A stretch of 34,540 nt of DNA from Clostridia bacterium (GCA_017456465.1 JAFTJJ010000014.1:1-34540); one strand, 5' to 3'. Shown: positions 4,100-22,792, counted from the first letter of the stretch. Notes: generated from the letters alone by a model not told the origin. Program-made: numbers and translations.

Positions 4100-4128
4100 T
4101 TGACATGATTTTCTTGTGAGTGTAAAAT
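4100..4128 (+). promoter_or_regulatory. Consensus sigma-A promoter of the ABC exporter operon
   Basis: TTGACA (4100-4105), exactly 17 nt, TAAAAT (4123-4128). It lies inside the 5' end of ORF-track 4116..5981, which argues against the GTG 4116 start. Confidence 0.7.
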
Positions 4129-4196
4129 TATCTAGTCACGAAAAATTAAATAAGATCATATATTTTTATGTTATGACTCAATCTCGGGGGAATGGT

Positions 4197-5981
4197 ATGT
4201 TTAAGCTTTTAAAGAATTTAAAATTTAAGGACTTTGTGCTTGTGATTGTCGCTGTTGCGCTCATTGTTTTGCAGGTTGCACTTGAACTCAAGATTCCAGA
4301 CTTCACTCGAAATCTCACCGAAATTGTTCAGTCTGGAACAATGACTGGCACTGCAAACATGTCAGATGTTTGGAAAAATGGTGGATTGATGCTTGCATGC
4401 GCAGCAGGGAGTCTTTTTTCGGCTGTAATTTGCACATTCTTGCTTTCAAGAGTTGCAAGCTCTTTTTCAAAAACGCTCAGAGACAAGCTTTATGAAAAAA
4501 TATCAACCTTTTCTGAGGCAGAAATGAAAAAGTTTTCTGTTCCAAGCTTGATCACCAGAACAACAAATGATGTTGTTCAAATGCAAAACTTCATGGCAAT
4601 GGGCATTCAACTTGTTTTCAAAGCTCCAATCATGGCTGTGTGGGCAATTTTGAAAATTTCCGAAACAAACATAAAGTGGACAATTGCTGTTGCTGTGAGT
4701 GTTGTTTTGATTGTTGTTGGCGTTGTGATTTTGACAAGGGTTGTTTTTCCAAGATTCAAAAGAATCCAAAAGCTCACGGACGAAATCAACACAGTGACCC
4801 GTGAAAGTGTTTCGGGCGTGAGAGTTGTGAGGGCTTTTGGGGCAGAAGATTTTCAAGAACAGAAGTTTGATGAAGTGAACAAAAAAATCACAAACAATCA
4901 TCTGGTCACATCAAGAACCCTTGGACTCATGAATCCAATGATGAACCTTGTGATGAATGGCCTCATGCTCGCCATTTATTGGATTGGTGCTGTTCTTGTG
5001 AATCAAATTGTGTTTTCTGGTGATGTGCAAGCAATGATCATTGAACGCGGTGCACTTGTTGGAAGCACAGCAGCTTTCACAAGCTATGCAATGCAGGTTG
5101 TGATGTCGTTCATGATGCTCATCATGATCTTTATTGTCCTTCCAAGAACTCTTGTGTCAGCAAAAAGAATTTTGGAAGTTCTTGAAACACAACCATCAAT
5201 TGTTGAGGGATGTTTTAATGGAGAACCTGAAAATCATGGAACAATCGAGTTCAAAAACGTCTCATTTTCTTATGCAGACTCCGAGAACGCAGAAAGAGCA
5301 ATTGCCGATGTTTCGTTCAAGGTTGCCACAGGTGAAACACTTGCAATCATCGGAGCGACTGGAAGCGCAAAAAGCACACTCATAAAGCTGATTCCAAGAT
5401 TCCATGATGCAACTCAAGGTACTGTTTTGGTTGACGGAGTTTGTGTGAAGGACTATAGAGAAGAAGTTCTAAACTCAAAAATCGCATTTGCTGCACAAAA
5501 AGCGGTGCTTTTCAAGGGAACAATAAGGGACAATATTGCTCTGGGGAGCGAAATTGTTGATGATGAAAAAATAAAAGAGGCTCTGAGAATCGCTCAGGCG
5601 GATTTTGTGTTTGAACTTGAAAAGGGGTTGGACAGTGAGGTTGCACAGGGTGGAACAAACTTTTCTGGCGGGCAAAAACAAAGATTGTCGATTGCGAGAG
5701 CTCTTTACAAAAACGCAGAAATAATCATTTTTGATGACACATTTTCTGCACTTGACTACAAAACCGACATGCTTGTTCGCTCAGCCATTCATGAAAATCT
5801 TGCGGGAAAAACAATTGTGATTGTCGCTCAACGCATTGGAACAATCAAGGATGCTGACCAAATTCTCGTTCTTGATGAAGGCAAAGTTGTTGGCAAGGGC
5901 ACTCACAAAGAACTTCTTGAAAACTGTGCTCTTTACAAAGAAATCGCACTTTCACAACTTTCAAAGGAGGAACTTGAATAA
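4197..5981 (+). CDS. ABC exporter permease/ATPase fusion, the subunit carrying the degenerate nucleotide-binding site
   Basis: N-terminal 6-TM exporter domain plus an NBD. Walker A is GATGSAKST, the signature is FSGGQ, Walker B is IIIFDD (Asp in place of the catalytic Glu), and the switch is IVAQR (Gln in place of His). ATG 4197 follows GGGGGA. Confidence 0.9.
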   Translation: MFKLLKNLKFKDFVLVIVAVALIVLQVALELKIPDFTRNLTEIVQSGTMTGTANMSDVWKNGGLMLACAAGSLFSAVICTFLLSRVASSFSKTLRDKLYEKISTFSEAEMKKFSVPSLITRTTNDVVQMQNFMAMGIQLVFKAPIMAVWAILKISETNIKWTIAVAVSVVLIVVGVVILTRVVFPRFKRIQKLTDEINTVTRESVSGVRVVRAFGAEDFQEQKFDEVNKKITNNHLVTSRTLGLMNPMMNLVMNGLMLAIYWIGAVLVNQIVFSGDVQAMIIERGALVGSTAAFTSYAMQVVMSFMMLIMIFIVLPRTLVSAKRILEVLETQPSIVEGCFNGEPENHGTIEFKNVSFSYADSENAERAIADVSFKVATGETLAIIGATGSAKSTLIKLIPRFHDATQGTVLVDGVCVKDYREEVLNSKIAFAAQKAVLFKGTIRDNIALGSEIVDDEKIKEALRIAQADFVFELEKGLDSEVAQGGTNFSGGQKQRLSIARALYKNAEIIIFDDTFSALDYKTDMLVRSAIHENLAGKTIVIVAQRIGTIKDADQILVLDEGKVVGKGTHKELLENCALYKEIALSQLSKEELE

Positions 5982-7792
5982 TGGCACCTTTTGGACATGG
6001 AAGACCACAGATCGGTGGCGGAAAACCACAAAAAACAGACTTCAAGTCACTCCTCAAGCTTGCAAAGTATTGCAAACCATTCATTCCATCAATTGTCACA
6101 GCTCTTGTTTTGGCTGTGCTTTCAGCGATTGCGTCGATTGTTGGACCAGACAAAATCAGCGAACTCATGAATGTGATAACTGCAGGTGTTGCAAGCATTT
6201 CTGGAATCGACATGACAGCATTCATGGATGTTGTTGTGTTTTTGATTTGCCTCTATGCTTTGGGTGCAGTTGCATCATATGTTCAGCAATTTTTGATGGC
6301 GGGAGTGACAGCAAAAGTCACCAAAAACCTCAGACATGATGTGAGCGCAAAAATCAACAAACTTCCGCTTTCATATTTTGATAAAATTGCGCGCGGTGAT
6401 TTGCTTTCAGTGATGACCAACGACATCGATGTCATTGCTCAAACACTGGGATCAACCATTGCAAACCTCGCAAGTTCAGTCACTCTTTTTGTCGGCGTTC
6501 TTGTGATGATGTTTGTGGTCAATTGGGTTTTGGCACTTGTGACAATTGCGTCTTCAGTTCTTGGATTTGTTTTGATGTTTTTGATTTTGGGAAAATCACA
6601 AAAATATTTTCATTTGCGTCAACAAAATCTTGCTGAACTTGGCGGCCATATTGAAGAAATTTACACAAACCACAGTGTCGTAAAATCTTATGGCGCTGCC
6701 TACAATGAAACTCAGAAATTTTCAAAAATAAATCACAATCTTTTCGCAAACAACTGGAAATCCCAGTCTCTTTCAGGACTCATGCATCCACTCATGGGAT
6801 TTGCAGGAAACATTTCATATGTCGCAATTTTTGTGGTTGGAATCGCACTCATTTTGAGTGGAAGCAGTGCTGTTTCATTTGGAACAATCATTTCATTCAC
6901 AATTTATGCAAGACTCTTTTCTCAACCATTGTCTTCAATTGCTCAGGCAATGAGTTCAATTCAGCAAGCGTCTGCAGCATCGGCTCGTGTCTTTGACATG
7001 CTCGGTGAAAAAGAAATTTCTGATGAGAAAGAAAAAGTGGCAAAAATTACGGACATTAAGGGAAATGTTGAATTCAAAAATGTTAAGTTTGGATACAATC
7101 CAAATGAACTCGTCATCAAAGACTTCACAGCATCAGTCAAAGCTGGTTCAAAAGTTGCAATTGTTGGGCCAACGGGTGCGGGAAAAACAACCCTTGTTAA
7201 CCTGCTCATGAGGTTTTATGAATTGGATTCAGGTGATATTTTTGTTGACGGGGTGTCAATCAAAGACATGAAACGCGAAGATGTTCGTGAAATGTTTGAC
7301 ATGATTTTGCAAGACACATGGCTTTTTGATGGCACAATCCGCGAAAACCTTGTTTACAACAAAACCGGTGTGACGGATGAAATGCTGGGGGAGGTTTGCT
7401 CAGCTGTCGGACTTTCTCACTTCATTGCAACTCTTGAACATGGCTATGACACAGTGCTTGACTCTGGTCTTGGCCTTTCAGAGGGACAAAAACAACAACT
7501 CACAATTGCAAGAGCAATGATCAAAAATTCACCAATGCTCATTTTGGATGAAGCAACATCAAGCGTTGACACAAGAACAGAACTTGTGATCCAAAACGCA
7601 ATGGACAAACTCACACATGGTCGAACATCATTTGTGATTGCTCACAGACTTTCAACCATCAAGAATGCCGATCTCATTTTGGTGCTCCGCGATGGTGACA
7701 TCAAAGAGCAGGGAACACATGATGAACTTCTTGCAAAAAATGGCTTTTATGCTGAACTTTATAACAGTCAGTTCCAAGATGTTGAGTCGTAA
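5981..7792 (+). CDS. ABC exporter permease/ATPase fusion, the subunit carrying the consensus site
   Basis: Walker A is GPTGAGKTT, Walker B is LILDEATS, the H-loop is IAHRLST and the signature is the non-canonical LSEGQ. Its start overlaps the upstream stop (TAATG at 5979-5983). Confidence 0.9.
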   Translation: MAPFGHGRPQIGGGKPQKTDFKSLLKLAKYCKPFIPSIVTALVLAVLSAIASIVGPDKISELMNVITAGVASISGIDMTAFMDVVVFLICLYALGAVASYVQQFLMAGVTAKVTKNLRHDVSAKINKLPLSYFDKIARGDLLSVMTNDIDVIAQTLGSTIANLASSVTLFVGVLVMMFVVNWVLALVTIASSVLGFVLMFLILGKSQKYFHLRQQNLAELGGHIEEIYTNHSVVKSYGAAYNETQKFSKINHNLFANNWKSQSLSGLMHPLMGFAGNISYVAIFVVGIALILSGSSAVSFGTIISFTIYARLFSQPLSSIAQAMSSIQQASAASARVFDMLGEKEISDEKEKVAKITDIKGNVEFKNVKFGYNPNELVIKDFTASVKAGSKVAIVGPTGAGKTTLVNLLMRFYELDSGDIFVDGVSIKDMKREDVREMFDMILQDTWLFDGTIRENLVYNKTGVTDEMLGEVCSAVGLSHFIATLEHGYDTVLDSGLGLSEGQKQQLTIARAMIKNSPMLILDEATSSVDTRTELVIQNAMDKLTHGRTSFVIAHRLSTIKNADLILVLRDGDIKEQGTHDELLAKNGFYAELYNSQFQDVES

Positions 7793-7902: not shown

Positions 7903-7935
7903 GTGGTGAGAATTTTCACCACCTTTTCTTTTTTA
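7903..7935 (+). terminator. Rho-independent terminator
   Basis: GTGGTGA (7903-7909) pairs with TCACCAC (7916-7922), followed by CTTTTCTTTTTT. Confidence 0.75.
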
Positions 7936-7942
7936 TCAATAT

Positions 7943-7971
7943 TGACTTTGATGCGCAAATTGGAGTATAAT
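7943..7971 (+). promoter_or_regulatory. Sigma-A promoter
   Basis: TTGACT (7943-7948), 17-nt spacer, TATAAT (7966-7971). Confidence 0.65.
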
Positions 7972-7988
7972 GTTCTCAAGGTGATTTT

Positions 7989-9023
7989 ATGTTTGTTATT
8001 AATGAAAAATTGAGAGAGGATGTCACATCCAACATCCCTGAAGTGTTCACACCAAGACAAAAACTTATTTGCGCTTACAAGAGACTATGTGAAAAACTTG
8101 AATATTCAATGCCAGCTTACATCAACACAGAAAGGCATGAAGGTTTTTACAGAAACCCATCAAAACTTGAACTAATTGATGGTGAAACACGACGCGACAT
8201 CATGTGTTATTCTTTTGCTGCAATTTTTTCTGAAATTGTTCGCGGAATGAATCTTCCACATGTCTTTACTTATCCTCCGAAGCTCGGCAAAAACAAGATT
8301 TTCGATCCAGACCACACATCTCTCAGGGTGTTTTTTGATGGCGATGAACTTGAGTTTGATCCACTCGGAGGAGTGATTGACAACAATGACATGAACAATG
8401 TCAAATTTGGACTCCCGGTTGCTGGAATTTCAGTGAACTATGCAAGAAAGGGAACAACCAAGAAAAAACTTGAAAAAGAAATCATGAACGACATTTCTGT
8501 TGTTTGCACAACAGAAAGATCACCAAAACATCACTTGGCGCTTGAATTTGAAAAAGTTGATGAATATGATTTTTCTGATCTTGACTTTGAAAGACGCCTT
8601 GCAATTTTCATGCGAAAATTGTCTGAAATTGATGAGCCAGTGTCGGCCGTCATGCTCAATTACATCATCAGACTCAAAAGAATGCTGTTTTTAAAAAGTG
8701 AAGATTGCGTGAACTTTGATCTTAAGTTTTTGAGCGATATCAAAAATGATCACAAACTTGTGTTCGTGAGCGCCAATCCAAAAGGTTATGAAAAGATAAA
8801 AGGCAAAGAAAATTTTGACTCATTGACTGTCACAATGTTTGATTTTTATTCACACAAAATCGTCACTTTTTCAAGAGATGAAGCACTGGAAATTGAGAAA
8901 AATCCAAACCTCTGCATTGACTCATCATCAAAATATTTAAAGTTTCACTTTTTGATGGCAAGCGATGGGCTGGAACGCGTTTCACAATCGGGCAATCAAC
9001 ACGTTCCAAGCGAAAGAATGTGA
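7989..9023 (+). CDS. Hypothetical protein with an N-terminal transglutaminase-like (papain-fold) Cys-His-Asp domain
   Basis: 344 aa with AAGGTGA upstream. The motif order is typical of transglutaminase-like cysteine proteases: TPRQKLICAYKRLCEKLEY, then DIMCYSFAAIFSEIVRGMNLP (Cys), DHTSLRVFF (His), EFDP (Asp). The C-terminal ~200 aa are unrecognised. Confidence 0.55.
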   Translation: MFVINEKLREDVTSNIPEVFTPRQKLICAYKRLCEKLEYSMPAYINTERHEGFYRNPSKLELIDGETRRDIMCYSFAAIFSEIVRGMNLPHVFTYPPKLGKNKIFDPDHTSLRVFFDGDELEFDPLGGVIDNNDMNNVKFGLPVAGISVNYARKGTTKKKLEKEIMNDISVVCTTERSPKHHLALEFEKVDEYDFSDLDFERRLAIFMRKLSEIDEPVSAVMLNYIIRLKRMLFLKSEDCVNFDLKFLSDIKNDHKLVFVSANPKGYEKIKGKENFDSLTVTMFDFYSHKIVTFSRDEALEIEKNPNLCIDSSSKYLKFHFLMASDGLERVSQSGNQHVPSERM

Positions 9024-9122
9024 TTTGGTTCAAATTGACCAATTAAAAACAAAATGTCTGATTGTGTTTGAAAACCTCACTTTTTGATGTAAAATATCAA
9101 GGAAAAGTGAGGATGGGTGCAA

Positions 9123-9536
9123 ATGAGAATCAATCAGTGTGGAAGTGCAATTTACAAATTCGGTGAAACACCAAAACTTGCTTGTGTGGTGTCTCAAGAA
9201 GTCGAAACCGAAGAGCCAAAATATTGGGACAGAACAATCACAATCGGCACTCTTTCAATGAAAAAGCTGCTGACTTTGCATGATTACAACATTCCTGAAA
9301 CGGGTGAACATCAAAAACAAAATGTGATTTGTTTTGAAAATTTTTTTGTTGTTGACACAACAAAAAGAAGTCAAAGTGCGGAAGAAGCCAGATTTTTTGA
9401 CACTTATTCATATGATGGAACACACCTTCTTTCATCAAACAAGCCTTGGGAAGATCAAGATCAAATCCAAACAGAACAAACTCTTGCAAAAATCGAAAAA
9501 GAAAAAGAGAGTTTTGAACAAACAGAAAAATTTTAA
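9123..9536 (+). CDS. Small hypothetical protein, paralogue 1 (137 aa)
   Basis: ATG 9123 lies downstream of GAGGATGGG. It shares FGxxPKL, CF(E/D)xFFVxD, FFxxYxY and a W(E/D)D-type motif (WEDQ here, WDDA in the paralogue) with the product of 9654..10061. Confidence 0.6.
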   Translation: MRINQCGSAIYKFGETPKLACVVSQEVETEEPKYWDRTITIGTLSMKKLLTLHDYNIPETGEHQKQNVICFENFFVVDTTKRSQSAEEARFFDTYSYDGTHLLSSNKPWEDQDQIQTEQTLAKIEKEKESFEQTEKF

Positions 9537-9550
9537 TTGCAAAGACACAA

Positions 9551-9584
9551 AAGCACAGGTTACAGACAGCCTGTGCTTTTGCTT
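9551..9584 (+). terminator. Rho-independent terminator
   Basis: AAGCACAGG (9551-9559) pairs with CCTGTGCTT (9570-9578), then a T-run. Confidence 0.75.
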
Positions 9585-9593
9585 GTTCACTAC

Positions 9594-9622
9594 TGTACAA
9601 ATCGTTGAATTTGTGATATAAT
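9594..9622 (+). promoter_or_regulatory. Extended -10 promoter (duplicated promoter module, copy 1)
   Basis: TGTACA (9594-9599), 17-nt spacer, TGaTATAAT (9614-9622). The context TTGTGATATAATATTTATAATAAAA recurs at 10120. Confidence 0.6.
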
Positions 9623-9653
9623 ATTTATAATAAAAATATTGGGAGAAATTGAA

Positions 9654-10061
9654 ATGCAAACATCTGTCCATGAGCAGGTTTATTTTTTCGGAAATTACCC
9701 AAAACTCAAGGCGAAAATCCAATTAACACAAAAAAGAGGTTGGGGATCGGATTTTGAGGCTGAAATTGAACTTTTTGACATGAAAGGCAACAAACTTTTT
9801 GAATTTGAAACCTATGATCTCAAAAGAAAAGGCAAGAGCCTTTTGAAAACCGCTCTGTGCTTTGATGATTTCTTTGTTCTTGATTCACATCTGGTGGACA
9901 AAACACGTGGAATCGATCGATGTTTTTTCAGGGCTTATGACTATAATGCAAATTTGATTTTGTCTGAGCAAAATTCATCATGGGATGATGCTGAGGGCTA
10001 CAAAAAAGTCAGATTGAAGCAAAAATATGATATGCTTGATGAAAGTGGAAGAATGTGGTAA
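9654..10061 (+). CDS. Small hypothetical protein, paralogue 2 (135 aa)
   Basis: ATG 9654 lies 8 nt after GGGAG (9641-9645); the ORF-track TTG 9639 overlaps the SD. It is a paralogue of 9123..9536. Confidence 0.6.
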   Translation: MQTSVHEQVYFFGNYPKLKAKIQLTQKRGWGSDFEAEIELFDMKGNKLFEFETYDLKRKGKSLLKTALCFDDFFVLDSHLVDKTRGIDRCFFRAYDYNANLILSEQNSSWDDAEGYKKVRLKQKYDMLDESGRMW

Positions 10062-10103
10062 AAGACAAGGCAGTCATCAATCAGCCATTAAAATCAATGG
10101 GAC

Positions 10104-10132
10104 TTGAAATATCTTACATTGTGTGATATAAT
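10104..10132 (+). promoter_or_regulatory. Extended -10 promoter (duplicated promoter module, copy 2)
   Basis: TTGAAA (10104-10109), 17-nt spacer, TGaTATAAT (10124-10132). Confidence 0.65.
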
Positions 10133-10170
10133 ATATAATAATAAAATTGTGATTCTTTTTGGGGGGAATT

Positions 10171-11229
10171 ATGATAAATTTAAACATGTTAACAGAAGAA
10201 AAACAAACAGCACTTCTTGAAAGAATTGATGCTCTTTCTGCTGAGATTGAATCTTTTCAAAGCTCTGGTGGAGACATTTATGATGAAAGAAGAAAATTGC
10301 CTTATTATGAACGCGTGCGTTCAATTGTGAGAAGTTTGAGAAAAGAACTTGGGGATGAAAATGTTTCATATGAGGATGTCTATGAACTTTGTGGGATCAA
10401 ATTCGACAGAGATTGGAACACTTTCATGACATGGATTGAAAGATTGGCGGAAACTGCCGATGAAGATGGGTTTGTTGATTCAATCAGGGATGACAAGGGT
10501 GCAAATGCGCTCTATAATGATCTTGCCTATTATGCCGAAAAATATGGAACAAGCAACTTCGATTTTCTTGTTTTGATGACACCGTTTTCATTGCGTGAAG
10601 CAATGGTGAACGTTGGTGACTATGATTCATACTTGAGGGGTCAACTTCGCGAGGCTTATTGCGACGGTGAGGCAGAAGGCATCAGACATGATGAACCTGC
10701 ACTATATGAAAAAATTCGACAGTCTCAAAAATACACACCGGGAGCAACTGGCAAAGACATGTTTGACAAATTTGATCTTGTGAATGAAAGAGTTCATGAA
10801 ACAAGAACGATTGACCAGCCAAAGCAAGCGTCAGAAATCATTGAAAGACTTGAACAGCTTTATCCATCGCATGTGGTTGGAAGACTCATTGAAGATGACA
10901 AAAAAACTTATTATGACGTTGTCAGAATCAGCAGAAATGAAGGGAAAAATCCAAAAGCTTGGCTTGAATCACATGGTTTTGATTATCCATCTGGAATCAC
11001 AAACACACATCCACAAACAAGAACAAAAATCGACACAGCAAAACGCGCTGAGATGCTTCGAGGAATGAAGGCTGAAATCATGAAAGAGTTCAATCTTGAA
11101 GGTGCTGATGACATTGACATCTATCACGCAAATCTTGAAGCGACAAAACGCGTGATTGAAAAAGTTAATCAAATGTATGCGACCAAGGAAAATTCGGAAA
11201 CATTGCAGGGGGAAGAAAAAAATGATTGA
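10171..11229 (+). CDS. Acidic hypothetical protein (352 aa)
   Basis: ATG 10171 follows GGGGGGA. The sequence looks helical and acidic and has no catalytic or NTP-binding motif. YYxxVR...G(F/I)(D/K)(Y/F) segments recur internally. Confidence 0.6.
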   Translation: MINLNMLTEEKQTALLERIDALSAEIESFQSSGGDIYDERRKLPYYERVRSIVRSLRKELGDENVSYEDVYELCGIKFDRDWNTFMTWIERLAETADEDGFVDSIRDDKGANALYNDLAYYAEKYGTSNFDFLVLMTPFSLREAMVNVGDYDSYLRGQLREAYCDGEAEGIRHDEPALYEKIRQSQKYTPGATGKDMFDKFDLVNERVHETRTIDQPKQASEIIERLEQLYPSHVVGRLIEDDKKTYYDVVRISRNEGKNPKAWLESHGFDYPSGITNTHPQTRTKIDTAKRAEMLRGMKAEIMKEFNLEGADDIDIYHANLEATKRVIEKVNQMYATKENSETLQGEEKND

Positions 11230-12304
11230 AATTCAAAGAGCACTTCCATCAAAATTTGGAAAGCGTGACCTCATGGGCAAAGACCACTGGCACACACTTG
11301 ACATTGATGAATACCGAATTGTTCAACCAACAATAATTTGCCTTGGCGGAAACGGAACAACTGATGACACACCTGAAACACAAGTTGGTGACAAACATCG
11401 TACAGGTTTGCAAAAAGCCAACGCGTTTTGCAAGCTTCTTGAGTCTCTTGTTGGACTCAAAATGGCTGGCAAAAACATATCTTCAACATACAGAGATGTT
11501 GAGGTTTTGGGTTTTTCTTATGGCAAAGATCGCATTTCTGACAGAACGGGCAATTTTTCAATCGGATATGTAAGAAAAATCGTAAACAATCTCTTGATGC
11601 CACTTTTCATGGATGAAAAACATGAACTTTTGCCTCCAATTGAATCGGCAAGAAATTTGTCACTCGTGACATTCTTCACTCATTGTCATGGATCAAGAGA
11701 ACTTGATCGAATCATGAAAATGCTTCATGATGAACTTGTCTACAAAGGATATTCTTCAGACACAGTGCAAGAAATTTTTTCTTACACCATGAACGTTGCT
11801 TATTGTCCACTTCCAGACGAAACATGGATTCCGACCATCAGGGTTGAAAGCATGACAGACAGTTTGAATGTTGGTCTTTCTGGCCTCTACAGAGATTATT
11901 ATGGCAAAAAGCTCAATGGAATTGATGTGAGATATGACAAGCCAAACTTCTCAAGAGGAAAGAAACTTCCTGATTGGATGAATCATCCTTACGCTGACAG
12001 AGTGACGATTTATACATCACGCATGGTCAACACAAAAGAAAACAGTGATCTAAGGAATCTCATTGATGAGCACACAGCATTCTTGCTTGGACGAAACGCA
12101 GATGACTGGTCAATCAAAACAAAAGCAACAAACCTTGATGCTGTGTCCCAAATGACAGCACTTGCTCTTGGTGAAAAAATTGCTTGCTCACTTCAAAATT
12201 ACAGAAAAGGCAGCGGTGATGTTATCAAAATTGAGGTGTCTCAAATTTATGACTATTGCAAAAACATTTTGGAGTGGTTTGATGAATCCGAACTCCAGTG
12301 TTAA
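11222..12304 (+). CDS. Hypothetical protein, possibly alpha/beta-hydrolase-like with a Cys nucleophile (360 aa)
   Basis: ATG 11222 follows GGGGGAAG and overlaps the upstream stop by 8 nt (ATGATTGA). Motif order is IICLGGNGT (oxyanion-loop-like), FFTHCHGS (small-x-Nu-x-small elbow with Cys), PLPDE, IDEHTAF. The functional call is speculative. Confidence 0.5.
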   Translation: MIEIQRALPSKFGKRDLMGKDHWHTLDIDEYRIVQPTIICLGGNGTTDDTPETQVGDKHRTGLQKANAFCKLLESLVGLKMAGKNISSTYRDVEVLGFSYGKDRISDRTGNFSIGYVRKIVNNLLMPLFMDEKHELLPPIESARNLSLVTFFTHCHGSRELDRIMKMLHDELVYKGYSSDTVQEIFSYTMNVAYCPLPDETWIPTIRVESMTDSLNVGLSGLYRDYYGKKLNGIDVRYDKPNFSRGKKLPDWMNHPYADRVTIYTSRMVNTKENSDLRNLIDEHTAFLLGRNADDWSIKTKATNLDAVSQMTALALGEKIACSLQNYRKGSGDVIKIEVSQIYDYCKNILEWFDESELQC

Positions 12305-12327
12305 AACAAACATAGGGAAATTTAGTT

Positions 12328-13431
12328 ATGCAACAAAAAAACATACAAGCGCTGCGTGCTGAACATGAACGCAGAGAAGTTGAATATGCAAGGTCAATGC
12401 AGAGGGTTTTCCCACCTGAACTTTTTGATGCAGTGAAGTCAAACATCGACAAACTTGAAAAACTGGGAGTTCAGGGTGAATTCAAAAGAGACTTTGAAAT
12501 CAAGGTTTCAGATCTCGAATGGGTCATGGGTGATTTTTTGACTCGCGCTGTGATCAATGAAGACTATGCAGGAAAACTTGGGAGCGTGCTCAATGGAACA
12601 AATCCAAACCTTGACATTGAAAGAATCACATCCATCAAACACCCTGAGTTTTCCAAAGCGGGATTGGATGAAAATCTGGCAACAAGGACAAATCCGAATG
12701 GAAAGGAAGAACTCATAAAACTTTCAAAAAGTCGTGTTGTGTTTCCACTTGCCAAAAGAAAACAAAAGGATGTTTTGACAACAAACTTTGAATGCCTTGC
12801 AATATCGATTCACGAAAGCGGACACGCGGTAGCAGAAAGAAACATTTCCGGAAAACCACTCCAAATGAAATGCGAAGAAATCGGTGAGATTGAAAGCATG
12901 GTGATTGAACGACTCTTTATGTTCCATATGTGCATGAGTCAAACAAACATGAACAGTCACTTCATGAACAAATGGCATCAACCATTTGCAGACGGGGCTG
13001 TGGGGGATGGCATTCTCAAAAAGGCATATTTGGATCATTTGCTTGAATCAAACAAAGGGCTTCTGCATCGCCTTGAAAAGATTACTGATGCAAATCATTG
13101 TTCTGTTTTTGGATCTGACCATGAAGCATCAAAACAATATGCCGCAAGGTATGTTTTTGGCGAAATTGTCTCAACATTGTTTTTGACTGAATATGTCTTG
13201 AATCCAAGTGAGGCGATGGAAAACCTTAACAATTTTGTCAAACACAATCATGAGATCACAAAATTTGGTGATGTGGCTGAAATGCTGCTTCCTCAAACTC
13301 TTGAAAAATTGAGAGCAAAACCTGAAAATCAGGGAAAAGGTTGGCATGAACTTGTCATCAAAAGATACATTGATCTTTCAAGCGTATTGGCTGATGAAAA
13401 AATCGTTGATGATTATGATGAAAAATTTTAA
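12328..13431 (+). CDS. Putative zinc metallopeptidase (HExxH...E, gluzincin-like), 367 aa
   Basis: AISIHESGHAVAE is followed about 25 residues later by GEIESMVIE. This spacing resembles M3/M32-type third-ligand Glu motifs. There is no signal peptide or TM segment. Confidence 0.6.
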   Translation: MQQKNIQALRAEHERREVEYARSMQRVFPPELFDAVKSNIDKLEKLGVQGEFKRDFEIKVSDLEWVMGDFLTRAVINEDYAGKLGSVLNGTNPNLDIERITSIKHPEFSKAGLDENLATRTNPNGKEELIKLSKSRVVFPLAKRKQKDVLTTNFECLAISIHESGHAVAERNISGKPLQMKCEEIGEIESMVIERLFMFHMCMSQTNMNSHFMNKWHQPFADGAVGDGILKKAYLDHLLESNKGLLHRLEKITDANHCSVFGSDHEASKQYAARYVFGEIVSTLFLTEYVLNPSEAMENLNNFVKHNHEITKFGDVAEMLLPQTLEKLRAKPENQGKGWHELVIKRYIDLSSVLADEKIVDDYDEKF

Positions 13432-13593
13432 ATCTTGCAAAATTGCAACAAGCAGATGAAATAAAAAAACAAGGGTCAACGATATTTTGTGGGAGTGAGT
13501 GATGAAGTTATTTAAAGCCCACCCAGCTTGTTGAAGTTGTTTCCCAGAGTTTGTCTGAAACAATGAAAAAATCAACTCTTAATCATTTGTGAA

Positions 13594-13622
13594 AACACCG
13601 ACAGAAATGCCGGTGTTTTTTT
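13594..13622 (+). terminator. Rho-independent terminator
   Basis: AACACCG (13594-13600) pairs with CGGTGTT (13611-13617), then a T-run to 13622. Confidence 0.75.
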
Positions 13623-13759: not shown

Positions 13760-14557
13760 ATGCTTTTCGACACGTTTCACATTTGTTACATAATTGTGTC
13801 AGCCTTGATAACAACTGGGCTTTTGATTGCATTCAAATATCTTTGCAAAACACAAAAAAGCAAAGATGTCACACTCAAAATCATTGCGATCTTTGTGGTT
13901 CTCATTCACTACAGTGAACTTTGGGTGAATTATCTTTCTAATGGTTACACAACAGTTGAGTCTCCGCTTTTGTTTCCGATTTATCCGTGCAATGTGATGA
14001 TGTGGCTCTTGCTTCTCACATCATACATTTCAAAAAAAGACACAATGTTTTATCGCATACTCACAGAGTTTGTTTCTCTTGCGGGAATTGTGTGCGCTGC
14101 CGCTGGAATTCTATTCAACTTCAATTACAACAACTGTGGGCTTGATTCATATGGAATCTTCAGTGGACTTTTTTCGCACAGTGTGATGTTTCTTGGCTGC
14201 ATTTATCTTTTAAGTGTTGCGAAAGTGAAAATCAGAATGTTCAATGTCGTCAGTGTTGTGTGTGGACTTCTGTTTTTCCTTGTTGATGGAGTGGTCATCA
14301 ACACAATTTTCAATCTTGCAGGACTCGATCCAGTGAACTCAATGTTTCTCATTGAGCCTCCGTTTGAGAACATGCCTTGGCTCAACACTTTGACCATCGG
14401 GATTGTTGCAATTGTTCTGGTTTTCATAATTGGAGCAATTGGTGAAGCTGTGTCACTTCCAAAAGAAGAAAGATGGCACCATAAACTTGCGGTTCGCTTC
14501 AAAGCCAAAAAAGAACAAACAAAAAATCAAAATATAAATCAAGAAACAAAAGAATAA
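13760..14557 (+). CDS. Polytopic membrane protein, YwaF/TMEM164-like family (paralogue of 852..1643)
   Basis: 265 aa with AAAGGAG upstream. It has a similar TM layout, with FPIYPCN at the position of LPLFLCS and a conserved His (LFSHSVMF compared with ITHAISGF). Confidence 0.6.
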   Translation: MLFDTFHICYIIVSALITTGLLIAFKYLCKTQKSKDVTLKIIAIFVVLIHYSELWVNYLSNGYTTVESPLLFPIYPCNVMMWLLLLTSYISKKDTMFYRILTEFVSLAGIVCAAAGILFNFNYNNCGLDSYGIFSGLFSHSVMFLGCIYLLSVAKVKIRMFNVVSVVCGLLFFLVDGVVINTIFNLAGLDPVNSMFLIEPPFENMPWLNTLTIGIVAIVLVFIIGAIGEAVSLPKEERWHHKLAVRFKAKKEQTKNQNINQETKE

Positions 14558-14581
14558 AAATCTGGGAACGGTGTTTGCAAA

Positions 14582-15163
14582 GTGTTCGAACTTCAAATTT
14601 TGGAATGGATCAACGCAAACCTTCATGGAGACAAGGTTTTGAATTTTCTCTTCGGTTTTGTCACAAACAGTGGCAACGCCGGATTGATTTGGATTGCTTT
14701 GTCTCTTATTTTTTTGATTCCAAAAAACACAAGAAAAGCTGGATTTGTGATGCTTGTCACACTGCTTTTGAGTTTCTTGCTTGTGGATGTGATTTTAAAG
14801 CCAACAATTTCAAGACCACGACCATATGAATTGAGCAAATCAATTTTTAACTTTTTGAAAACCGCTGGGATTGATATTCCGAGCTCACCGTCATTTCCAT
14901 CAGGGCATGCTTCAAGTGCATTTGCAACATCATTTGCAATGTATTTTCAAAACAAAAAATTCGGAAAACCACTTGTGATTTATGGCGTTATTGTGGCCAT
15001 CTCACGCATTTTCTTTTGTGTGCACTATGTTTCAGATGTGATCACTGGCGCAGTTATTGGCTTTTTAACTGCCTATTTCATTGTCGAAATTGTGAGAAAA
15101 TTCGATCGCAGACAAATCTCCAAGACTGGGGTTTTGAAAGTTCGAGATGACATAACTTTTTAG
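14582..15163 (+). CDS. PAP2-family lipid phosphatase (undecaprenyl-diphosphate/phosphatidate phosphatase type)
   Basis: All three PAP2 motifs are present: KPTISRPRP, PSGH and SRIFFCVHYVSDV. The GTG 14582 start is uncertain because the SD is poor. Confidence 0.85.
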   Translation: MFELQILEWINANLHGDKVLNFLFGFVTNSGNAGLIWIALSLIFLIPKNTRKAGFVMLVTLLLSFLLVDVILKPTISRPRPYELSKSIFNFLKTAGIDIPSSPSFPSGHASSAFATSFAMYFQNKKFGKPLVIYGVIVAISRIFFCVHYVSDVITGAVIGFLTAYFIVEIVRKFDRRQISKTGVLKVRDDITF

Positions 15164-20686: not shown

Positions 20687-21256
20687 ATGAAAAAATTATT
20701 ACTTCATTCATGTTGTGCGCCGTGCTCAACAGCTGTGATTGAAAGACTGCTTGCGGACATGCCTGACACTGAAATTTTGGTTTATTATTACAATCCAAAC
20801 ATTTATCCAGAAGCAGAATATCAAAAACGCAAAAATGAACAAATCAGATATATTGGACTTTTGAACTCACCGCGCGTCAAATTTGTTGACGCTGATTATG
20901 TCCCAGAGGATTATTTTCGCTCAGTTGAGGGTCTTGAAAATGAGAAAGAGGGTGGATCAAGGTGTGCAAAGTGCTTTTATTTGAGACTTCTTGAAACATG
21001 CTTCAAGGCAAAAGATGAGGGGGCTGACATGTTTGGAACAACTCTCACAGTGAGCCCACACAAAAATGCTGATCTCATCAATGCAATTGGATGCCAAATT
21101 TCCGCAATGTTCGGTGTTGAGTTTTTGGTTGCAGACTTCAAAAAGAAAGATGGTTACAAGCGCAGCGTAACCCTTTCAAAAGAAAACGACATTTACAGAC
21201 AAAATTATTGCGGATGCAAGTTTTCAATTTGGGATGGGGCGGTGCTTCCAGAATAA
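20687..21256 (+). CDS. queH: Epoxyqueuosine reductase QueH (DUF208)
   Basis: The N-terminal LLHSCCAPCS and C-terminal YCGC Cys clusters, and the ~190-aa length, are typical of QueH. Confidence 0.85.
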   Translation: MKKLLLHSCCAPCSTAVIERLLADMPDTEILVYYYNPNIYPEAEYQKRKNEQIRYIGLLNSPRVKFVDADYVPEDYFRSVEGLENEKEGGSRCAKCFYLRLLETCFKAKDEGADMFGTTLTVSPHKNADLINAIGCQISAMFGVEFLVADFKKKDGYKRSVTLSKENDIYRQNYCGCKFSIWDGAVLPE

Positions 21257-21276
21257 AATCAAGGAGGAACATTGAT

Positions 21277-21882
21277 GTGTCAAAAACCAAAACTATCTTA
21301 AAAAGAATATTTTGTGTTATGTTGTTTGTTGTTCTTCTTCCAATCATCCTTGTTCTCTTGATCATCAAGGCAATTTCCAAAAAATCACGACAAAAATTAT
21401 ATTTCAAAAACAAGATTTCAGGCAGAAAACTTGTGATGACAACAACAGTTGACACACTTGACAAAATGGAGGATTTTGAACTTGGTGATTTTTTCAAATA
21501 CCTCTTCTTTTATCAGGGGTTTTCAACAAAAAAATTGGACACCATCAAAAATTGTTTGGTGCTTGAGAAAAACAACCGCTTGTTCTTGATGATGCACTCC
21601 AAAAGCAAACAATCCAAACATGAAAAACTTGTTTCAAAACTTGCAGAGGCAATGGCTCAAAACAACATTCAAACGGGCATCTATGTCACTTCTGCAAACA
21701 TTGGTGAACAATTCAAAATCCAACAAAAGACAAATGGCATTGACATAATTGACAGACCAGCCTTGGCTCTTCTCATCCAAAATGTTTCAAAAGAACTTCA
21801 AAATGGATCGTTTGTGTTTGACCAAGACTCTGACAAACCAGTTGATGAACTTCTTGAAAAAATGTATCCAAACAGCATCTGA
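21277..21882 (+). CDS. Membrane-anchored protein with a restriction-endonuclease-like (Mrr_cat-type) C-terminal domain
   Basis: GTG 21277 lies 9 nt after AAGGAGG (21261-21267); the ORF-track start 21208 lies inside queH. There is one N-terminal TM segment (FCVMLFVVLLPIILVLLII). The pattern that follows is FELGDFFKYLFFYQGF...LVLEKNN...HSKSK...GIYVTSANIGEQF...IDIIDRPALALLI. Confidence 0.5.
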   Translation: MSKTKTILKRIFCVMLFVVLLPIILVLLIIKAISKKSRQKLYFKNKISGRKLVMTTTVDTLDKMEDFELGDFFKYLFFYQGFSTKKLDTIKNCLVLEKNNRLFLMMHSKSKQSKHEKLVSKLAEAMAQNNIQTGIYVTSANIGEQFKIQQKTNGIDIIDRPALALLIQNVSKELQNGSFVFDQDSDKPVDELLEKMYPNSI

Positions 21883-21936: not shown

Positions 21937-22036
21937 TTGTGAAAACATGGCAAATGTTCGATGCTTTGTCAAAACTTTGTCATGGGCTGAGTAATTAATT
22001 TGTCCCTTGCATAAACTAGCACCATGGGAGAAATTT

Positions 22037-22792
22037 ATGTTTGAACTCACTATTGAATCCAATTACTTGCACGAGGATGCTGTTCTTGCTGCAAAAAACT
22101 TTCTTTTGCCAACTGTTCAAGATATGGGTGGTGTGATTGTTTGTGGCAACACACATGGACGAATTCAGATTGCTCTTGCTGTTCCGATTTCAAAGAAGCA
22201 TGTCATCAAAAGCATTGTTCTTGATGTGGCTGCAGACGCAATTGTTTCAATTTTCAAAAGACAACACTTGGATGACGCAATTCATGGCGCTTTTCTCTCT
22301 TCGGAAACCAGATCATCTCTCTTGTCTGCGCTTTCGGAGTTTGACAGGGAAACTGATGTCAACCTTGCAAAAAAACACTTGGTTTTTTCAAACTGCATTT
22401 TGCTTGACAGCACATACTTTTTTAAGATGCAAGAACTTCGTGACAGATGGGATGAAGTGGCAGTCCTTGTTTCAAACAACCTTCCAAATTTGATTGCGGG
22501 CGACGCAGTCATTGAAATGATGAAATTCTTAATCAAAACAACACCAAGCAAAACACCAGAGGTCTATTTGTCTCTTTTGGATGATGGAAAACTCTCGGTT
22601 GTTTCAAAAAACCCACAAAGATCATGCCTTCAACTTTTTGACAAAACATCTGAGGATTTTGAGGAAAAATTTATTTCATTTTTGATCTCGCTTGCTCCAA
22701 AACGGATTTTTGTAACTCACAAACTCAAAAGCTGTCTTTCTTGCATGGAAAAAATCCAAAATCTTTTTGAAGACAAAATATTCACAACATAA
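22037..22792 (+). CDS. ytxC: YtxC-like protein (call based on synteny)
   Basis: 251 aa. ATG 22037 lies 6 nt after GGGAG. It sits immediately upstream of the thrS T-box leader, as ytxC does in Bacillus and Clostridia. I cannot verify sequence similarity by eye. Confidence 0.45.
   Translation: MFELTIESNYLHEDAVLAAKNFLLPTVQDMGGVIVCGNTHGRIQIALAVPISKKHVIKSIVLDVAADAIVSIFKRQHLDDAIHGAFLSSETRSSLLSALSEFDRETDVNLAKKHLVFSNCILLDSTYFFKMQELRDRWDEVAVLVSNNLPNLIAGDAVIEMMKFLIKTTPSKTPEVYLSLLDDGKLSVVSKNPQRSCLQLFDKTSEDFEEKFISFLISLAPKRIFVTHKLKSCLSCMEKIQNLFEDKIFTT

Follow-up and report, generated by a model that had tools for sequence, protein, structure and literature searches.

Organization of the block

The stretch of DNA analysed here, hereafter the window, is a contig of 34,540 nucleotides from a Clostridia bacterium (GCA_017456465.1, JAFTJJ010000014.1:1-34540). 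Our subject is a block of six co-directional open reading frames (ORFs), g1 to g6, which the ORF listing of the window places between an ABC exporter gene pair (4116-7792) and a YwaF/TMEM164-like gene (13760). An earlier reading of the sequence, called here the original prediction, had recognised the six ORFs at the same positions, had matched none of them to a recognised housekeeping family, and had likened the block to toxin/immunity, effector or defence-type loci. In searches of Pfam, NCBIfam, PADLOC and PHROGs, none of the six ORFs had a match with a meaningful E-value. The products fall into five separate protein families (g1, g2/g3, g4, g5 and g6), and all six are soluble: the maximal hydropathy over 19 residues stays below 1.2, and no transmembrane or signal-like segment was seen, in agreement with the original prediction. 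The host assembly, of which the window is contig C101, amounts to 1.10 Mb in 144 contigs, with 38% GC, and is rated 96% complete; other genomes of the same bacterial family range from 0.7 to 1.8 Mb, most being about 1 Mb.

Table 1. Genes and candidate transcription signals of the block (positions in the window)
Feature	Position	Strand	Description	Basis
Terminator-like hairpin	7903..7935	+	Ends the upstream ABC exporter operon	Scan: 8-bp stem 7903-7922, then T-run
Sigma-70-like promoter	7942..7971	+	Upstream of g1; TTGACT-18-TATAAT	11/12, consensus match only
g1	7989..9023	+	344-residue soluble protein, Cys73-His109-Asp124 triad, variable C-terminal half	ORF listing, homologue alignment
g2	9123..9536	+	137-residue acidic protein, tandem paralogue of g3	ORF listing, alignment
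Extended -10 promoter-like site	9594..9622	+	Upstream of g3	10/12 with TG
g3	9654..10061	+	135-residue protein, tandem paralogue of g2	ORF listing, alignment
Extended -10 promoter-like site	10104..10132	+	Upstream of g4; TTGAAA-17-TATAAT	11/12 with TG
g4	10171..11229	+	352-residue acidic (isoelectric point 4.8) soluble protein	ORF listing, homologue alignment
g5	11222..12304	+	360-residue alpha/beta-hydrolase-fold protein, Cys155-Asp213-His284 triad, invariant Cys40-x-x-Gly43 after strand 37-41	
g6	12328..13431	+	367-residue half-size M3B (PepF)-like predicted zinc metallopeptidase	Profile, AlphaFold2, Foldseek
Probable intrinsic terminator	13594..13622	+	Ends the block; ACACCG...CGGTGT then T7	By eye

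Alternative starts are listed for four of the genes (9117 or 9123 for g2, 9639 or 9654 for g3, 10159 or 10171 for g4, 11156 or 11222 for g5). The ATG starts at 10171 and 11222, those retained in the original prediction, agree with the conserved N-termini of the g4 and g5 homologues. The predicted coupling of the last three genes was likewise found, with an overlap of 8 nucleotides between g4 and g5, the start of g5 overlapping the stop of g4, and a gap of 23 nucleotides between g5 and g6. We expect that g5 and g6 would be co-expressed, and in the genus of the window probably g4 along with them.

Both terminators of the original prediction were recovered, that at 7903 by our scan and that at 13594-13622 by eye. 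The latter has a 6-bp GC-rich stem, a loop of roughly 10 nucleotides and a T-run, and was not called by the scan because its loop exceeds 8 nucleotides, beyond the rules of the scan. As for the three promoters, sites do exist at 7942, 9594 and 10104 and score 10 to 11 out of 12, but they should be read as consensus matches only, since the region contains 25 promoter-like sites where 15.6 +/- 4.0 are expected, a mild enrichment. An Rfam search of the block region returned no element.

A predicted alpha/beta hydrolase with a cysteine nucleophile

In a six-frame search of the bacterial family, the g5 family was found in 101 of 401 genomes and in 17 of 58 genera; a genome carries at most four copies, and some of the copies lie in tandem. 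An alignment of 26 sequences, 27 to 54% identical to g5, revealed six invariant residues: C40, G43, C155, G157, D213 and H284. The AlphaFold2 model is confident (predicted local distance difference test, pLDDT, 90.7; predicted template modelling score, pTM, 0.91), and places C155 where strand 149-154 passes into helix 156-175, a nucleophile elbow (small-x-Nu-x-Gly). D213 follows strand 205-210, and H284 lies in a loop before helix 286-289, the geometry of the triad being judged by these secondary-structure positions.

A Foldseek comparison of the model with the PDB gave as best match the C-terminal hydrolase domain of Obc1 (PDB 5iky; E 4.5e-7, template modelling (TM) score 0.47-0.49), which has the same fold, followed by cutinases, lipases and esterases. 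Against BFVD the matches included an ORFan of Tupanvirus (E 1.3e-8) and more alpha/beta hydrolases, and in the two libraries nearly every match belongs to this superfamily. Taken together, the confident model, the Foldseek matches and the invariant triad support the cysteine elbow that the original prediction had proposed, and the model shows an alpha/beta-hydrolase fold with a cysteine at the nucleophile position.

The order nucleophile-Asp-His and the Gly-rich loop after strand 37-41 are shared with classical alpha/beta hydrolases, in which the loop after the equivalent strand usually holds the oxyanion hole. In contrast, the nucleophile of g5 is an invariant cysteine and not a serine, and a second invariant cysteine, C40, stands in a C-L-G-G-N-G loop, the position of the putative oxyanion hole being deduced from the fold. 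The distance to known members is also large: the structural neighbours are 7 to 13% identical to g5, with TM-scores of at most 0.49 among PDB matches, and at the sequence level g5 matches no family of Pfam, NCBIfam or the PDB, its profile giving no significant match in the PDB. Dienelactone hydrolase is a known alpha/beta hydrolase with a cysteine nucleophile. Its likeness to g5 is confined to that cysteine, and g5 gave no Pfam hit at E <= 1.

Two further scans were made with g5: the alignment retrieved no relatives from JGI metagenomes, and the sole find among genome contigs was a metagenome-assembled genome of the same genus. Among the structural neighbours of g5 in the two libraries, the above-mentioned ORFan ranks first; it is a 661-residue protein of Tupanvirus deep ocean (BFVD A0A6N1NN29, TM-score 0.52). 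Some g5 homologues reach 590 to 660 residues, as at L046:9921-11891(-), L050:8566-10527(+) and L057:7476-9248(-) (genomes G407, G384 and G171). They carry a C-terminal extension of about 230 to 300 residues made of helical repeats of 60 to 70 residues (for example, S-F-E-E-I-x-x-I-L-x-x-x-x-Y-x-x-x-x-x-L-P), for which Pfam gave no hit and no relation to g4 could be detected. A 'Rosetta stone' link between g4 and g5, in which this repeat extension of about 300 residues would correspond to the g4 family, was rejected on an hhalign probability of 0.65%.

The catalytic half of a PepF-type gluzincin

Single-sequence searches with g6 gave matches in the genus and in one relative only, and a profile built from six sequences retrieved 124 representative clusters worldwide among 1.84 billion proteins. 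In an alignment of 68 homologues, H162, E163, H166, E187 and Y275 are invariant, and E194, R274 and G278 nearly so. H162, H166 and E187 are the putative zinc ligands, E163 the putative catalytic base, and Y275 belongs to an R-Y-x-x-G motif.

The relationship to oligoendopeptidase F (PepF; MEROPS family M3B, clan MA(E)), which stands closest to g6 together with the wider M3/M32/M2 'neurolysin-like' gluzincins, was detected in three ways. Against the PDB, the g6 profile matched the PepF structures 3ce2 (E 3e-7) and 2qr4 (E 6e-7) over about 270 residues, from upstream of the HExxH motif, through the glutamate helix, to the tyrosine motif. Against the 593-residue PepF encoded by the genome itself (contig C47), hhalign gave a probability of 84% (E 7e-6), the HESGH of g6 coinciding with HEMGH384. 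Finally, in the AlphaFold2 model (pLDDT 91.3) HExxH lies in helix 154-167, and the top Foldseek matches were PepF 3sks, the M32 carboxypeptidases 3dwc and 3hq2, K-26 DCP and organellar oligopeptidase; the scores of this comparison are marginal (E 0.009-0.24, TM-score 0.36-0.42), the top classes being M3B, M32 and M3A. These matches and the invariant residues support the HExxH...E metallopeptidase of the original prediction and relate it to PepF: g6 has the catalytic half of an M3B/PepF-type gluzincin, with HExxH, Glu187 and Tyr275.

With PepF, g6 shares the HExxH helix, a third-ligand glutamate 25 residues downstream in the next helix (GEIES in g6, AEIAS in PepF, E187 aligning with the glutamate of AEIAS/EIAS), and a downstream tyrosine in an R/K-Y-x-x-G motif. 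It differs in length (367 against about 600 residues), since it corresponds to about residues 297 to 569 of PepF and is devoid of the N-terminal half, including Peptidase_M3_N. The Peptidase_M3_N domain closes the substrate channel of PepF. Of the features that define M3B, g6 thus has the HExxH helix and the third-ligand glutamate, but neither a match to the family model nor the two-domain architecture of about 600 residues; none of the 68 family members had a Pfam domain, including Peptidase_M3. Because of this missing match and the half length, we file g6, which would work in the manner of an M3 enzyme, as M3B-like and not as a member of M3B. As the genome has kept a canonical PepF, g6 is an extra, divergent copy.

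A second copy of g6 is present in the genome at C6:2892-3938 (23% identity by tblastn, 26% by genome search). Its context is conserved in both species of the genus (C6:2892-5943(-), and L006:191-4205, which is G001:C47). On the upstream side it comprises a DUF6442 gene and the genes of an ABC ATPase and an ABC-2 permease; on the downstream side, an unannotated gene coding for about 216 residues, and a NUDIX gene. On another contig of the second species (G001:C69, L007:4166-11547), a 384-residue g6 paralogue overlaps by 19 nucleotides the end of an ORF of 2081 residues, which has no Pfam domain; NfeD and FloA genes come after it.

A Cys-His-Asp protein, possibly of the NAT/transglutaminase type

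The g1 family occurs in 56 of the 401 genomes and 18 of the 58 genera of the bacterial family, as proteins of 340 to 620 residues. Across 22 aligned sequences, Y30, C34, Y39, C73, H109 and G146 are invariant, and D124, D134 and K139 nearly so, D124 being kept in at least 90%. The Cys-His-Asp triad of the original prediction is therefore conserved among homologues, and the same holds for the other catalytic motifs that it had named. Members of the family had no Pfam match, including Acetyltransf_2 and Transglut_core.

Searched against the PDB, the core profile of g1 gave a single hit, GdmF, which is below threshold (E 0.7-1.7) and in which cysteine, histidine and aspartate are aligned together. 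The triad of GdmF, an amide synthase of the NAT family, is Cys73-His111-Asp126 (PMC11903869), a spacing close to that in g1. The intervals in g1 are those of NAT and transglutaminase triads (about 36 to 40, then about 15 residues), and the cysteine is followed, as in both families, by a hydrophobic helix-like segment. However, the (I/V)(P/A)FENL motif of NAT was not seen in g1, which also differs from both families by an extra C-terminal half of about 200 residues and, in some relatives, by an N-terminal extension of about 230 residues. Judged from the sequence, the triad fits the papain-like NAT/transglutaminase superfamily, and an acyl-transfer role would be just as likely as a protease role.

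The small paralogues g2 and g3 and the acidic protein g4

The tandem paralogy proposed for g2 and g3 is confirmed (29% identity over 108 residues, E 6.5e-11). Homologues of this pair are nearly nil: one 128-residue ORF in genome G156 (E 1.8e-6), two other hits being noise. In a genome of the same genus (G001), one contig stops after g1, and the ORF that starts there reads MEIKQCGRVIYRSGG, compared with MRINQCGSAIYKFGE in g2, an N-terminal fragment of the orthologue; the contig that begins before g4 contains the end of an ORF, ...RDQSWGDKAFAEFLKIRKYMQESNERYW (stop), compared with ...EQNSSWDDAEGYKKVRLKQKYDMLDESGRMW (stop) in g3, a C-terminal fragment. The break of the assembly falls exactly between the g2 fragment and the g3 fragment, so that the genus has all six genes in the same order.

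The G156 homologue (L113:1498-2606, contig G156:C60), which shares CFEDFF and YDY motifs with g2 and g3, lies 77 nucleotides upstream of a canonical pepF (Peptidase_M3_N, E 7e-21). A link between g2/g3 and M3 peptidases was considered for this reason and rejected: we judge the adjacency a coincidence, because the pepF of the window's genome (C47:1796-3577) has no g2/g3-like neighbour.

The g4 family is mostly single-copy and is present in 55 of the 401 genomes and 13 of the 58 genera. G33, G34, Y37, Y46, G75 and Y247 are invariant, and the motifs GG-x-x-Y, LPYYE and DY-L-LMT are conserved. No match was found in Pfam or in the PDB, and by these sequence comparisons the family is lineage-restricted and has no recognisable relative. 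In genome G249, one homologue (L097:1498-2481, contig G249:C1) is interrupted by a single in-frame TAA, leaving ORFs of 129 and 178 residues; it may be a pseudogene, which, if so, suggests that the family is dispensable.

Conservation and divergence of the block

Two relatives of the window's genome retain a recognisable version of the block. The first, G001, has g1 (59% identical), the g2 and g3 fragments, g4 (64%), g5 (54 to 71%), g6 (46%) and YwaF (67%), and the g4/g5 overlap is common to the two genomes. In the second, known from ENA metagenome contigs (L009/L010), g1 (36%) is followed by an unrelated 77-residue gene, g5 (53%) and g6 (37%); g2 and g3 were not found in this relative. Downstream come two TMEM164 copies, DegV, ArsR, a P-type ATPase, ArgRS, QueH and ThrRS, which is the chromosomal site of the window, and the cluster was therefore vertically inherited. 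The conserved core of the clade consists of g1 and the tightly coupled pair g5-g6 (gaps of 5 to 23 nucleotides), whereas g4 and g2/g3 are genus-level content. All six genes are together in this genus only. By the refuting condition that the original prediction had set, a lack of co-occurrence in other genomes, the six-gene unit thus holds within the genus but not beyond it.

Elsewhere the families are dispersed. The g1, g4 and g5 families were found only within genomes of this bacterial family, and in about 100 fetched loci at least two block families adjoin only in the window's genome (G000), G001, L009/L010 and G120, the last having g4 and g5 side by side in convergent orientation. Profile searches for g1, g2/g3, g4 and g6 around at least 40 g5 and g1 loci detected nothing beyond the clade and G120. 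In other genera, g1, g4 and g5 family members sit singly among housekeeping genes, and so do the two homologues of the g6 family that were traced beyond the clade; neighbours of g5, g1 and g6 homologues include acetate kinase/Pta, epimerase, acyltransferase, MetRS, BipA, AsnRS/AspRS, TrpRS and glycosyltransferase genes. At the genome level the association is weak, with odds ratios, which ignore phylogeny, of 1.35 for g5-g1 (p 0.32), 2.05 for g5-g4 (p 0.03) and 2.5 for g1-g4 (p 0.01).

Block proteins are 36 to 53% identical to their counterparts in L009/L010, against 62 to 85% for the flanking housekeeping set (YwaF, DegV, ArsR, ATPase, ArgRS, QueH and ThrRS), and evolve about twice as fast as these neighbours. 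Four of the five block families are fast-evolving, g2/g3 having too few homologues to be judged. Two other sites differ between the window and this relative. Where L009 has two tandem TMEM164/YwaF genes (L009:2911-4576), the window has YwaF followed by a PAP2 phosphatase gene (13760-15163). Between QueH and ThrRS, two unannotated genes of the window (21208-21882 and 22007-22792) are 39% and 49% identical to the relative, divergent like the block genes.

Native origin of the block

The GC content (35 to 39%) and codon usage of the six genes are inside the normal range of the genome, a native profile. No match to g1, g5 or g6 was found by tblastn among 72,556 plasmids and 50,697 phages, and no flanking repeats were found around the block. 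PADLOC-DB 2.0 gave two hits at noise level only (E 0.003 and 0.017). Together with the syntenic site, the single occurrence of the families elsewhere and their weak co-occurrence, these results speak against the likeness to toxin/immunity, effector or defence loci. The original prediction is thus partly supported: its folds for g5 and g6 and its triad in g1 stand, but its conflict or defence reading is not supported.

Possible roles of the block

The question arises as to what a row of six such genes represents. We favour, with a probability of about one half, a native, vertically inherited and clade-specific local cluster that is not one dedicated multi-gene system. Here g1, g5 and g6 would work in the cytosol, as enzymes acting on acyl, amide or peptide bonds by cleavage or transfer. 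From its fold and invariant residues, g6 would trim short peptides as PepF does, by means of a zinc-activated water, with Glu163 as general base and Tyr275 stabilising the intermediate, while g5 and g1 would form acyl-thioenzyme intermediates on their cysteines. As for g2, g3 and g4, they may be partners with no catalytic part, or passengers unrelated to the enzymes. The block would then most likely serve accessory intracellular peptide/amide turnover or small-molecule deacylation in a reduced-genome bacterium, and not inter-cellular conflict.

Several points weigh against this interpretation. Peptide or amide turnover is proposed solely from predicted folds. Fast divergence, paralogue expansion and tandem g5 copies are also typical of conflict genes, as is a duplicated small protein beside a cysteine enzyme. 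Moreover, the conserved linkage of g1 with g5-g6 and the translational coupling of g4, g5 and g6 could mean that the enzymes share one substrate.

This last point leads to a tentative alternative, a dedicated pathway in which g1 (a NAT/transglutaminase-like acyl-cysteine enzyme), g5 (a cysteine hydrolase or thioesterase) and g6 (an oligopeptidase) successively process a single peptide or acyl-thioester. They might thereby mature or degrade a product derived from a peptide, with a possible tie to the upstream ABC exporter, and g2, g3 and g4 would be scaffolds or regulators. The three enzymes are indeed kept together, with g5-g6 gaps of 5 to 23 nucleotides, in three genomes whose housekeeping identity is 62 to 85%, and the g4/g5 overlap recurs in two of them; outside the clade, however, the families are unlinked and co-occurrence is weak. 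The ABC exporter pair lies directly upstream, but a terminator and a promoter-like site separate its operon from g1, and internal promoter-like sites divide the block itself. The only PDB hit of g1, below threshold, is an amide synthase of the NAT family, yet the block contains neither a precursor-like small peptide gene nor a biosynthetic core enzyme.

Alternatively, the block may be a toxin/immunity or effector locus, in which the toxins or effectors, delivered to other cells or to a eukaryotic host, would be g1, g5 or g6, and g2/g3, with the acidic g4, would be their immunity proteins or inhibitors. We consider this unlikely. The tandem-duplicated small acidic protein directly after a Cys-His-Asp enzyme speaks for such a locus, but g2/g3 are missing where the relative keeps g1, g5 and g6, and were not found beside g1, g5 or g6 homologues outside the genus. 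The identity of 36 to 53%, when neighbours reach 62 to 85%, the multiple and tandem g5 paralogues (at most 4 per genome, some with C-terminal repeat extensions) and the paralogues of g6 speak for it as well; elsewhere, however, g1, g4, g5 and g6 homologues stand solo, and no small partner belonging to a shared family adjoins them. The reduced genome, in a lineage that has eukaryote-type mTERF proteins, is a further point in its favour, but the six block proteins have no signal peptides or transmembrane segments, Pfam searches detected no LXG, WXG, Rhs or other delivery domain in any of the six, and the composition is native, with no PADLOC or PHROG hits and no mobile-element hallmarks. A bolder version, decidedly improbable in our opinion, is that the g1, g5 and g6 families make up a diversifying set of effectors or of toxins directed at other cells, with g2/g3 or g4 inhibiting them, and that reduced-genome, partner-dependent Clostridia export this set along an unrecognised route. 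If true, the cysteine alpha/beta hydrolase and the mini-PepF would have targets in another cell and not among the cell's own metabolites.

As for anti-phage defence by a system of a type not yet described, a multi-gene block with protease-like enzymes, four of whose five families are lineage-restricted and fast-evolving, might suggest it, but with PADLOC matches at noise level only, no nuclease, NTPase, sensor or effector-type module, no defence island or mobile elements adjoining the block, and components scattered singly in other genomes, we hold it to be very improbable indeed.

Returning to the native local cluster, the outcome is that a mystery island becomes a set of concrete enzyme predictions. 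These include a family of alpha/beta hydrolases with a cysteine nucleophile in about a quarter of the sampled genomes of the bacterial family, and the g1, g5 and g6 families are new to Pfam, NCBIfam, PHROGs and PADLOC. Gene adjacency does not define a system here, which calls for caution against hasty defence or toxin labels. The biological stakes would be modest unless an activity or a role in conflict is demonstrated. The mTERF proteins mentioned above are exemplified by a 391-residue eukaryote-type protein with a Pfam mTERF hit (L127:13625-14800(-)), encoded on the contig of a solo g6-family gene.

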